64,000 nucleotides of DNA from a phage: the sequence record OR896157.1. The stretch is one strand, 5' to 3'. Each line of letters starts with the position of its first letter. Position 1 is the first letter of the stretch. A program made the translations under genes and the position numbers. Positions 46,972-52,516 of the stretch are shown piece by piece. The notes beneath the pieces are model-generated. The model searched no databases, was not told the DNA's origin, and was given only the letters and a program-made list of their open reading frames with translations.

Positions 46972-47056
46972 TGGAGCTAGGAGTGAGATTCGAACTCACG
47001 AAGGGATACCCGGCGGATTTGCAATCCGCTGCCTTTGGCCACTCAGCAACCCTAGC
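46972..47056 (-). tRNA. tRNA with class-II architecture and anticodon GCA (Cys-type)
   Basis: acceptor GCUAGGG/UCCUAGC, anticodon stem-loop GCGGA-UUGCAAA-UCCGC, 13-nt variable arm CGGGUAUCCCUUC; assignment tentative. Confidence 0.5.
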
Positions 47057-49305: not shown

Positions 49306-49382
49306 TGGTGACCCCAGCAGGACTCGAACCTGCAACCTAGCGATTATGAGTCGCGTGCTCTAACCAATTGAGCTATAGGGCC
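49306..49382 (-). tRNA. tRNA-Met (anticodon CAU), elongator-type
   Basis: acceptor GGCCCUA/UGGGGUC, D GCUC..GAGC, anticodon loop CUCAUAA, T-arm GCAGG-UUCGAGU-CCUGC, CCA encoded. Confidence 0.8.
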
Positions 49383-49971: not shown

Positions 49972-49978
49972 AATTTGT

Positions 49979-50070
49979 ACGGAACGCCTGGATTCGAACC
50001 AGGTTAAATTGCGATTGACGTCACAATTTATCTTATGAAGGCCATGCCTCTACCATATCCGAACGTTCCG
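49979..50070 (-). tRNA. atypical tRNA-like gene / possible pseudo-tRNA with CAU-type anticodon loop (UUCAUAA) and a 9-bp hairpin insertion
   Basis: perfect 7-bp acceptor CGGAACG/CGUUCCG and T-arm CCUGG-UUCGAAU-CCAGG, but weak D and anticodon stems and a 26-nt perfect hairpin before the T-arm. Confidence 0.35.
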
Positions 50071-50121
50071 TCAAAAACGCTACTCGGCTTACGGCTTAGG
50101 CAATTCCTCGAACCGATAATT

Positions 50122-51699: not shown

Positions 51700-51785
51700 T
51701 GGCGGGCCGTGCAGGTATCGAACCTGCCTAGTCATTTCTGACACGGATTAACAGTCCGTCGCTTACCCTCTCAGCCAACGACCCA
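51700..51785 (-). tRNA. tRNA with anticodon GUU (Asn-type) and a 15-nt variable arm
   Basis: acceptor GGGUCGU/ACGGCCC, anticodon stem-loop ACGGA-CUGUUAA-UCCGU, extra hairpin GUCA-GAAA-UGAC, T-arm GCAGG-UUCGAUA-CCUGC. Confidence 0.55.
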
Positions 51786-51943: not shown

Positions 51944-51981
51944 GTAGATATTTATAATAACAAAAATATCTTTAAGCAAAT

Positions 51982-52063: not shown

Positions 52064-52151
52064 TGGTGGGGAGTGATGGAGTCGAACCACCCGAGTCGCA
52101 ATGACAACAGATTTACAGTCTGCACCGCTACCTCTACGGAATTAACTCCCC
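52064..52151 (-). tRNA. tRNA-Tyr (anticodon GUA), class II
   Basis: acceptor GGGGAGU/ACUCCCC, anticodon stem-loop GCAGA-CUGUAAA-UCUGU, long variable arm; 5 nt between acceptor and D-stem. Confidence 0.75.
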
Positions 52152-52156
52152 GAAAT

Positions 52157-52516
52157 TTATTTAAGAACTGTTGAGTTCATCGATTTAACCAAGAAAACTT
52201 GGTGCGGTGAACGAAGTGAACCTTCAATAGTGCGATGTTCTGGAAAATTGGTTGAAGTCTGAAAACCAGCTACACGGTAACCTTGCTCAGTCCATCCTAA
52301 AAGGATACCAACCATACAGCCAGAATATTTTCCGCTTTTATCCAAAGCTACAATATCACCAGGAGCAATTTCATTACCCATTGAATCAGGCTTAATCCAT
52401 TGTGGAGTAACCAGTTCTATAGGTATATTTATACCGCTTGAAAAGCTGTAATATTCGTCTGAACGTAAGCCCTGAATGCTTTTAAAGACTTTATGCCAAG
52501 TTTTGCTGATGCTCAT
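52157..52516 (-). CDS. hypothetical protein
   Basis: 119-aa ORF directly upstream of the tRNA array. Confidence 0.5.
   Translation of the reverse strand: MSISKTWHKVFKSIQGLRSDEYYSFSSGINIPIELVTPQWIKPDSMGNEIAPGDIVALDKSGKYSGCMVGILLGWTEQGYRVAGFQTSTNFPEHRTIEGSLRSPHQVFLVKSMNSTVLK

Follow-up and report, generated by a model that had tools for sequence, protein, structure and literature searches.

A tRNA-like RNA in the tRNA array of a Karamvirus phage is very probably the ortholog of T4 rnaC

We analysed a 64,000-nucleotide stretch of phage DNA (sequence record OR896157.1), here called the window, and conclude with high confidence that the segment 50116..49978 on its minus strand is the Karamvirus ortholog of T4 rnaC (species 1 RNA) and carries a four-way-junction fold. 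An original prediction had described a degenerate tRNA-like gene at this locus, and comparison of the sequences identifies that element as the 3' two-thirds of this longer, known RNA. As a gene, rnaC is already known; the covariation-backed fold, with its kissing loop and two exchangeable arm classes, may perhaps be new. The explanation taken as a whole, which joins identity and fold to an inferred maturation and action in trans, we regard as likely. One outcome is a correction of annotation, as loci recorded as an ARAGORN 'tRNA-Met' of the PG7 type, left blank or given hypothetical CDSs belong to a conserved non-coding RNA, rnaC, that is very widespread in the T4 family. The comparative model also provides handles for experiments, namely the acceptor-like helix, the modular arm, the kissing loop, the two arm classes and the CCA-like flank.

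Identity and distribution of the element

A blastn search with a 154-nt query, comprising the predicted element plus its upstream 'spacer', matched 741 phage records, 728 of which covered at least 80% of the query. T4-type phages matched with 80.8% identity over 98% of the query (151 nt, E 5e-32), and the annotated feature beneath the match in RB7, RB27, RB68 and T4 was rnaC, whilst SonariX was 100% identical over all 154 nt. The ends of the window RNA were set by alignment to the RB7 and T4 genes and transferred by homology, which replaced the predicted limits of 50070..49979 by 50116..49978. In this alignment the three RNAs are each 139 nt long and share their ends (5' UCGRUUCGAGG..., 3' ...CGUA), and the T4 riboprobe template used in PMC9697503 begins at the same 5' nucleotides as the aligned 5' end. 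A covariance model built here (R1) recovered the element at 50116-49977 with 149 bits (E 1e-38), and an Rfam scan of the window at E<=1 found no family covering it.

For structural comparison we assembled 30 distinct homologs from Tequatrovirus, Mosigvirus, Karamvirus, Moonvirus, Kanagawavirus, Tegunavirus, Gelderlandvirus, Marfavirus and unclassified Straboviridae. The useful diversity came from an annotated phage collection, as pattern scans of IMG/VR and one metagenome scan gave mostly chance matches or near-identical T4-type copies.

Genomic context

The window derives from a T4-like phage of the genus Karamvirus, and its tRNA region is 93-98% identical to those of Karamvirus phages of Enterobacter/Klebsiella (e.g. 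PG7, vB_EclM-UFV01 and SonariX). The array holds about 20 tRNAs with rnaC among them in an internal position; on the minus strand the rnaC region reads ...GACGGAACGUUCGGAUAUGGUAGAGGCAUGGCCUUCAUAAGAUAAAUUGUGACGUCAAUCGCAAUUUAACCUGGUUCGAAUCCAGGCGUUCCGUAC..., and the PG7 copy has the same sequence as that of the window. According to ARAGORN, 50116..49978 is separated from tRNA-Trp by a 5-nt spacer and from tRNA-Gly by a 6-nt spacer, and the other spacers in the tRNA sub-arrays of the window measure 1-6 nt. rnaC thus occupies exactly one slot of the tRNA array.

Model R1 found no second match, and hence no rnaC paralog, in the whole window, and no match at 50-100 kb of RB49; rnaC was also absent from the related arrays of CkP1 and Merlin. 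In Merlin, a small CDS (Merlin159) lies between tRNA-Ser and tRNA-Gly, at the place taken by tRNA-Trp and rnaC in the window. We found no homolog of T4 rnaD (species 2 RNA) in the whole window, where tRNA-Trp holds the position that rnaD has in T4, directly upstream of rnaC.

Several further observations concern the array itself. An extra tRNA missed by ARAGORN lies at 52067-52151 on the minus strand (39.1 bits with the Rfam tRNA model), and its equivalent is annotated as tRNA-Tyr in PG7 and fGh-Ecl01. The ARAGORN calls tRNA-Cys(GCA) (46972-47056, minus strand) and tRNA-Asn(GUU) (51700-51784, minus strand) are each 85 nt long with a long variable arm and a 3-bp D stem, and each of their anticodons is one base from the Tyr anticodon GUA. 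To our knowledge, type-II tRNAs of bacteria are normally those of Leu, Ser and Tyr only; a quick alignment of the two 85-nt tRNAs with those for Tyr, Leu and Ser in the array gave no clear indication of their origin. The CAU tRNA at 49306-49382 (minus strand), Met according to ARAGORN, has an equivalent annotated as tRNA-Ile in fGh-Ecl01 and is likely a lysidine-type Ile2 tRNA. The motif TATAAATA, which we take to be the T4 late-promoter consensus, occurs on the coding strand, upstream and within or before the tRNA array, at 51949-51956 and 52426-52433 (both minus strand). Across the window it occurs seven times against a chance mean of 3.5, which is not clearly in excess. The two sites are compatible with the late expression of T4 RNAC (PMC9697503).

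A conserved four-way junction

Run unguided on 26 homologs, RNAalifold returned a terminal helix P1 (nt 2-8/131-137), a helix P2, a long arm of four helices, a hairpin (here hairpin D) and a T arm (Table 1). In this structure 93.7% of cells were paired and 26 pairs carried changes on both sides, values matched by none of 500 shuffles, and slid controls were about 40% paired. Extending the count to all 30 sequences and to the pseudoknot gave 92.6% paired cells, with compensatory changes in 28 of the 46 base pairs.

The long-arm helices (alignment columns 15-17/71-73, 23-27/61-65, 31-33/55-57 and 38-41/50-53) were 95-99% paired, with double changes in 14 of their 15 pairs, and all four core pairs of P6 covaried. 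Hairpin D showed compensatory changes in eight of the nine pairs of its stem (97.8% of cells paired), and the T arm was 100% paired with two covarying pairs (UA:18 / GC:11). Within P1, the pair 4:139 (alignment columns) was GC in 16 sequences, AU in 10 and broken in none, the A-U variant being that of the T4-type phages. P1 contains two U.U mismatches in 27 of the 30 sequences and consists in the window of five Watson-Crick pairs plus two U.U; the tandem U.U is replaced by U-A and C-G in Tegunavirus phages, and in phiR1-RT P1 is a perfect 7-bp helix. P2 (AGG/CCU) was paired in 30 of 30 sequences, is invariant and hence has no covariation support; it was predicted by both RNAalifold and the single-sequence minimum free energy (MFE) calculation. 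We discarded a candidate hairpin, GGUC/GGCC, as incompatible with the covarying helix P4.

For the full 139-nt RNA of the window, the MFE structure is the conserved fold (-49.7 kcal/mol, z -3.82), with none of 200 shuffles as good, and the full-length RNAs of T4 and Yen9-01 also fold into the conserved structure. A folding program therefore does give a convincing structure for the 139 nt, and what forms is a four-way junction of tRNA-like shape instead of a canonical cloverleaf.

Table 1. Positions of rnaC and its structural features in the window, with the annotated reference genes
Feature	Position	Strand	Remarks
rnaC ortholog, whole RNA	50116..49978	(-)	139 nt; RNA position r = window coordinate 50117 - r
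P1 5' strand CGGUUCG, nt 2-8	50109..50115	(-)	real acceptor-like 5' strand; pairs with 49986-49980
P2 5' strand AGG, nt 9-11	50106..50108	(-)	D-stem position; pairs with CCU 50041-50039
Long arm, helices P3-P6, nt 15-72	50045..50102	(-)	contains ACGGAACG, 50071-50064
Long-arm apical loop UUGACG, nt 43-48	50069..50074	(-)	putative kissing partner 1
P2 3' strand CCU, nt 76-78	50039..50041	(-)	conserved GG just before, 50043-50042
Single-stranded linker UCAUAAGA, nt 79-86	50031..50038	(-)	'anticodon' CAU at 50037-50035
Hairpin D, nt 87-112	50005..50030	(-)	anticodon-arm position; loop CGUCAA 50020-50015, putative kissing partner 2
T arm CCUGG-UUCGAAU-CCAGG, nt 114-130	49987..50003	(-)	canonical T-loop sequence
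P1 3' strand CGUUCCG, nt 131-137	49980..49986	(-)	followed by tail UA, 49979-49978
RB7 ncRNA rnaC	L003:1509-1647		139 nt; record annotation
T4 misc_RNA rnaC, 'small, stable RNA; species 1 RNA'			139 nt; record annotation

The 5' segment UCGGUUCGAGGA (50105-50116) includes GGUUCGA, an exact repeat of the T arm's 5' half (GGUUCGAAUCC); this repeat could be a coincidence or an internal duplication.

A candidate kissing loop and two classes of long arm

The long arm ends in the apical loop UUGACG, to which the hairpin-D loop CGUCAA is perfectly complementary, and all six loop-loop positions are complementary in 30 of 30 sequences. Two independent double changes have occurred, to UUGAUG/CAUCAA in Tegunavirus and to UUGGCG/CGCCAA in Marfavirus, the hairpin-D loop being otherwise invariant. 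This pattern of complementarity indicates a kissing loop, and the covariation is equally compatible with intra- and intermolecular pairing. Pairing between molecules, giving dimers or rings as in phi29 pRNA, would also ease a geometric demand, as the long arm (approximately 18 bp) and hairpin D (9-10 bp) differ in length such that a contact in cis needs bends. The four internal loops of the long arm could however supply this bending, and we know of no RNA requirement in the defined T4 packaging systems, which counts against rings; we therefore consider an intermolecular arrangement unlikely and favour a kissing interaction within one molecule.

In class-2 homologs, approximately 61 nt of the long arm are replaced by an unrelated sequence of equal length that preserves the apical loop and the arrangement of helices in three tiers but lacks ACGGAACG. 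Members of this class are fGh-Ecl01 (Karamvirus), Melville, Kosakonia 305, PEi20-like, Marfa-like, NM4.3 and Ursula. The genus Karamvirus includes both long-arm classes, a distribution that suggests exchange of the arm as a module through recombination.

Hypothetical CDSs are annotated over several class-2 copies (L081 167-304, L068 349-453, L078 92-265 and L079 112-222) and are probably mis-annotations of the non-coding RNA. Were the locus to encode a small protein, as in these class-2 records (e.g. Marfa_145), the conserved GAGGA could serve as the ribosome-binding site, a role that some of the annotations assign to it. The frames nevertheless stop at different places among members and run through the T arm, codon substitutions are pairwise compensatory in helices (GCAU/AUGC, GUGU/ACGC, CACGU/ACGUG) and the class-1 copy of PG7 bears no annotated ORF, making a protein product exceedingly improbable.

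Re-evaluation of the tRNA reading

The original prediction placed the start of a tRNA-like gene at C50070, and ARAGORN independently called a 95-nt tRNA-Met(cat) at 49977-50071 on the minus strand. What had been observed was partly confirmed, and its interpretation partly supported. The perfect 7-bp acceptor complement is present (CGGAACG, 50070-50064, with CGTTCCG, 49986-49980, minus strand), and A50071-T49979 forms an eighth pair. The T arm was rightly described as canonical (CCTGG-TTCGAAT-CCAGG) and covaries across homologs, the sequence UUCAUAA does fall at positions 32-38 counted from C50070, and the D and anticodon stems are poorly paired in the ARAGORN drawing, where the anticodon stem has two Watson-Crick pairs, one G.U and two mismatches. 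A hairpin reported as perfect, with 9 bp in the variable region, also exists and covaries, exceeding chance; its strict perfection did not stand, as it forms either 10 bp including one U.G around the 6-nt loop CGUCAA or 9 bp around an 8-nt loop.

The acceptor pairing does not behave as a conserved stem. Its 5' strand according to both the original prediction and ARAGORN, ACGGAACG (50071-50064), lies inside the long arm, and the pairing of nt 45-52 with the 3' end shows no compensatory pair, is broken at one position (49:139) in 14 of the 26 homologs and is incompatible with helix P6. Under the ARAGORN register, the ACGAAACG of Moon, RZH, PS49 and Q7622 gives an A.C mismatch, whereas in the conserved fold it falls within a loop; in Tegunavirus the internal segment is AUGUAACG, which is unable to pair with the 3' end. 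With the ARAGORN acceptor forced, the window RNA reaches -42.1 kcal/mol. A 97-nt fold reproducing this register was rejected after folding of the full 139 nt and the covariation counts. The ARAGORN cloverleaf is the wrong register, and the same applies to the proposal of a tRNA with an insertion in its variable region: the real acceptor 5' strand lies 50 nt further upstream, the large insertion sits at the place of the D arm and the 'variable-region' hairpin is at the anticodon-arm position.

The predicted anticodon fares no better. Homologs have UUUUAAA (T4/RB7), UUUGAAA or UUCUAAA in place of the 'anticodon' loop, and outside an AANAU core the linker sequence is not conserved (T4 UUUAAAAA, Moon UUGAAAAAA; between P2 and hairpin D the T4 linker is UUUUAAAAA). 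The linker is unpaired in both the window MFE and the consensus structure, and in the sub-lineage comprising PG7, SonariX and the window, which is distinct in the stem sequences of P3 and hairpin D, it happens to read UUCAUAA. As the hairpin-D loop would be paired with the long arm and CAU sits in a variable linker, rnaC appears to have no free anticodon. The Rfam tRNA model RF00005 gave no match over 49977-50116 at E<=1, and 20 neighbouring tRNAs scored 39-72 bits with it (gathering score 29).

A functional, non-canonical 95-nt CAU tRNA with a long variable arm, decoding AUG or AUA, would fit the PG7 record, in which a 95-nt tRNA-Met is annotated at the locus, and the perfect 8-bp acceptor that the window offers in this register. 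We nonetheless give this reading next to no credence, since its acceptor has zero compensatory pairs, is mismatched in Moon, RZH, PS49, Q7622 and Tegunavirus, lacks its strand in class 2 and excludes the covarying P6. In addition, the anticodon loop is not conserved, the 95-nt call leaves a 50-nt 'spacer' to tRNA-Trp, and tRNAscan-based annotations skip the locus, which is left blank in the records of Entb_43 (tRNAscan-SE annotation) and fGh-Ecl01.

The idea of a decaying tRNA-Met/Ile2(CAU) left in the array as a pseudogene draws on the ARAGORN call with its weak D and anticodon stems, the failure of the Rfam tRNA model and the two genuine CAU tRNAs that ARAGORN places near rnaC. Against this, more than 700 phage records keep the full 139-nt unit, Tegunavirus and RB69 loci retain it outside a tRNA array, the 28 compensatory base pairs (of 46) would not be upheld in a pseudogene, the CAU of the linker is not conserved and alignment to the two genuine CAU tRNAs yields T-loop identity only. 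The T4 ortholog is moreover an abundant stable RNA (PMC9697503), and decay is thus extremely unlikely. Closest of the three readings originally offered is the tRNA-like regulatory RNA, the element being an ortholog of rnaC, a stable tRNA-shaped non-coding RNA.

A last variant retains both pairings, such that in class-1 RNAs the 3' strand would switch between the 5' terminus (M2) and ACGGAACG (M1), for example around 5' processing. Both states are possible in the window, where M1 comprises eight perfect pairs and M2 five Watson-Crick pairs plus two U.U, and M1 is 85.6% paired across homologs. However, M1 is without covariation, costs about 7.6 kcal/mol overall and is lost in class 2 and Tegunavirus, whilst the constraint that the kissing partner places on UUGACG explains the residual complementarity of ACGGAACG to the 3' strand. 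A two-state RNA is consequently very unlikely, and we retain the single four-way junction.

Expression and proposed function

For T4, a Northern blot confirmed RNAC, which was assigned to the late RNAs (PMC9697503). Published sources describe the role of RNAC and RNAD as unknown (PMC3014915, 2010; PMC9697503, 2022; PMC12685909, 2025), and in the literature after those papers we found no functional paper on RNAC. One possibility is that rnaC serves chiefly in cis, as a module for the processing or stability of the tRNA operon transcript, without function in trans. Its embedding in an array with tRNA-like spacers would suit this role, as would the T4 copy, the last unit before the terminator (PMC2330249). 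The Tegunavirus and RB69 loci nevertheless retain rnaC flanked by CDSs and not by a tRNA array, which argues against a purely cis processing role; its array position also varies, from internal in the window to terminal in T4, and a conserved tertiary pairing together with a discrete stable RNA (T4) exceeds the needs of a processing signal. We judge the cis-only role rather improbable.

Our preferred reading is one of action in trans. Given its tRNA slot, the tRNA-like spacers and the acceptor/T stack, rnaC is probably cut from the array transcript by host tRNA-maturation enzymes, with RNase P acting at the 5' end and trimming at the 3' end. It would then probably accumulate as a compact, stable, nuclease-resistant RNA that exposes only the acceptor/T 'top half'. 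In trans it may bind a protein, serving as mimic or decoy towards a factor that reads tRNA shape independently of the anticodon, a mechanism that we put forward as a tentative possibility. The viability of T4 on laboratory hosts after deletion of its tRNA region counts against this reading. Action as a decoder or antisense RNA is unlikely, and antisense action is disfavoured because the two best-conserved loops would be consumed by the internal kissing interaction.

A more specific and more doubtful proposal is that rnaC is a tRNA-derived decoy, in which an insertion at the D-arm position folds back and locks the anticodon-arm loop through a 6-bp kiss, exposes the top half and titrates or redirects a host factor. 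If this were true, the target could be, for example, a tRNA-targeting defence nuclease or a maturation enzyme, and the long arm would be a swappable module, its classes exchanged within a genus whilst the kissing loop is kept.

Comparison with known RNAs

The window RNA and T4 rnaC agree in size (139-140 nt), in their ends relative to the fold, in location within the tRNA region, in covarying structure and in kissing-loop sequences. They differ in order, T4 rnaC coming last, after rnaD, and the window copy lying internally between tRNA-Trp and tRNA-Gly.

With canonical tRNAs, rnaC shares a 7-bp terminal helix that abuts a 5-bp T stem without an intervening nucleotide, the loop UUCGAAU, a four-way junction, location in an array, tRNA-like spacers and a CCA-like NCA flank; genuine tRNAs can be aligned to model R1 over their whole length, with low score. 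Unlike them it lacks a D arm, having instead a 3-bp stem that bears a 58-nt arm, and it has a linker of 8-10 nt where tRNA has nucleotide 26, an 'anticodon' stem of 9-10 bp with a 6-nt, apparently sequestered loop, and an acceptor with tandem U.U, and the Rfam tRNA model gives no match. The flank 3' of P1 (window 49972-49979) is conserved as GU[A/C/U]CAA and may be a degenerate CCA end: after P1 the window encodes U-ACA and Marfavirus U-CCA. As the window has UACA and not CCA at this point, CCA-dependent enzymes may or may not recognise it. In Marfavirus and Kanagawavirus, position 1 forms an A-U pair with the nucleotide that follows P1.

The conserved GG preceding the 3' strand of P2 may be an analog of tRNA G18G19. 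In Kanagawavirus Q7622/CIP9 this GG is CG and the T loop (window 49992-49998) reads UGCAUGC instead of UUCGAAU, with G in place of U55, a change that fits conversion of a G18:U55-like contact to C:G and that, as a single evolutionary event, is at most suggestive.

The tRNA-like domain of tmRNA resembles rnaC in its acceptor helix, built from the 5' and 3' ends and set beside a T arm, and in a long helix that departs from the junction immediately behind the 5' strand. rnaC differs in lacking G3.U70 (its pair 3:70 is G-C or A-U), an encoded CCA (in the window), a tag reading frame and a pseudoknot series, and neither ARAGORN nor Rfam calls a tmRNA. The YrlA family (RF02553) gave no match on rnaC and sub-threshold matches (21-29 bits, gathering 69) on other tRNAs of the window. 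In phi29 pRNA, as in rnaC, two hairpin loops within the same phage RNA are complementary to each other and covary, a likeness without homology; the pRNA contacts are made in trans and build rings on the portal. Set beside these systems, rnaC is a conserved structured RNA, not a pseudogene or a decoder.
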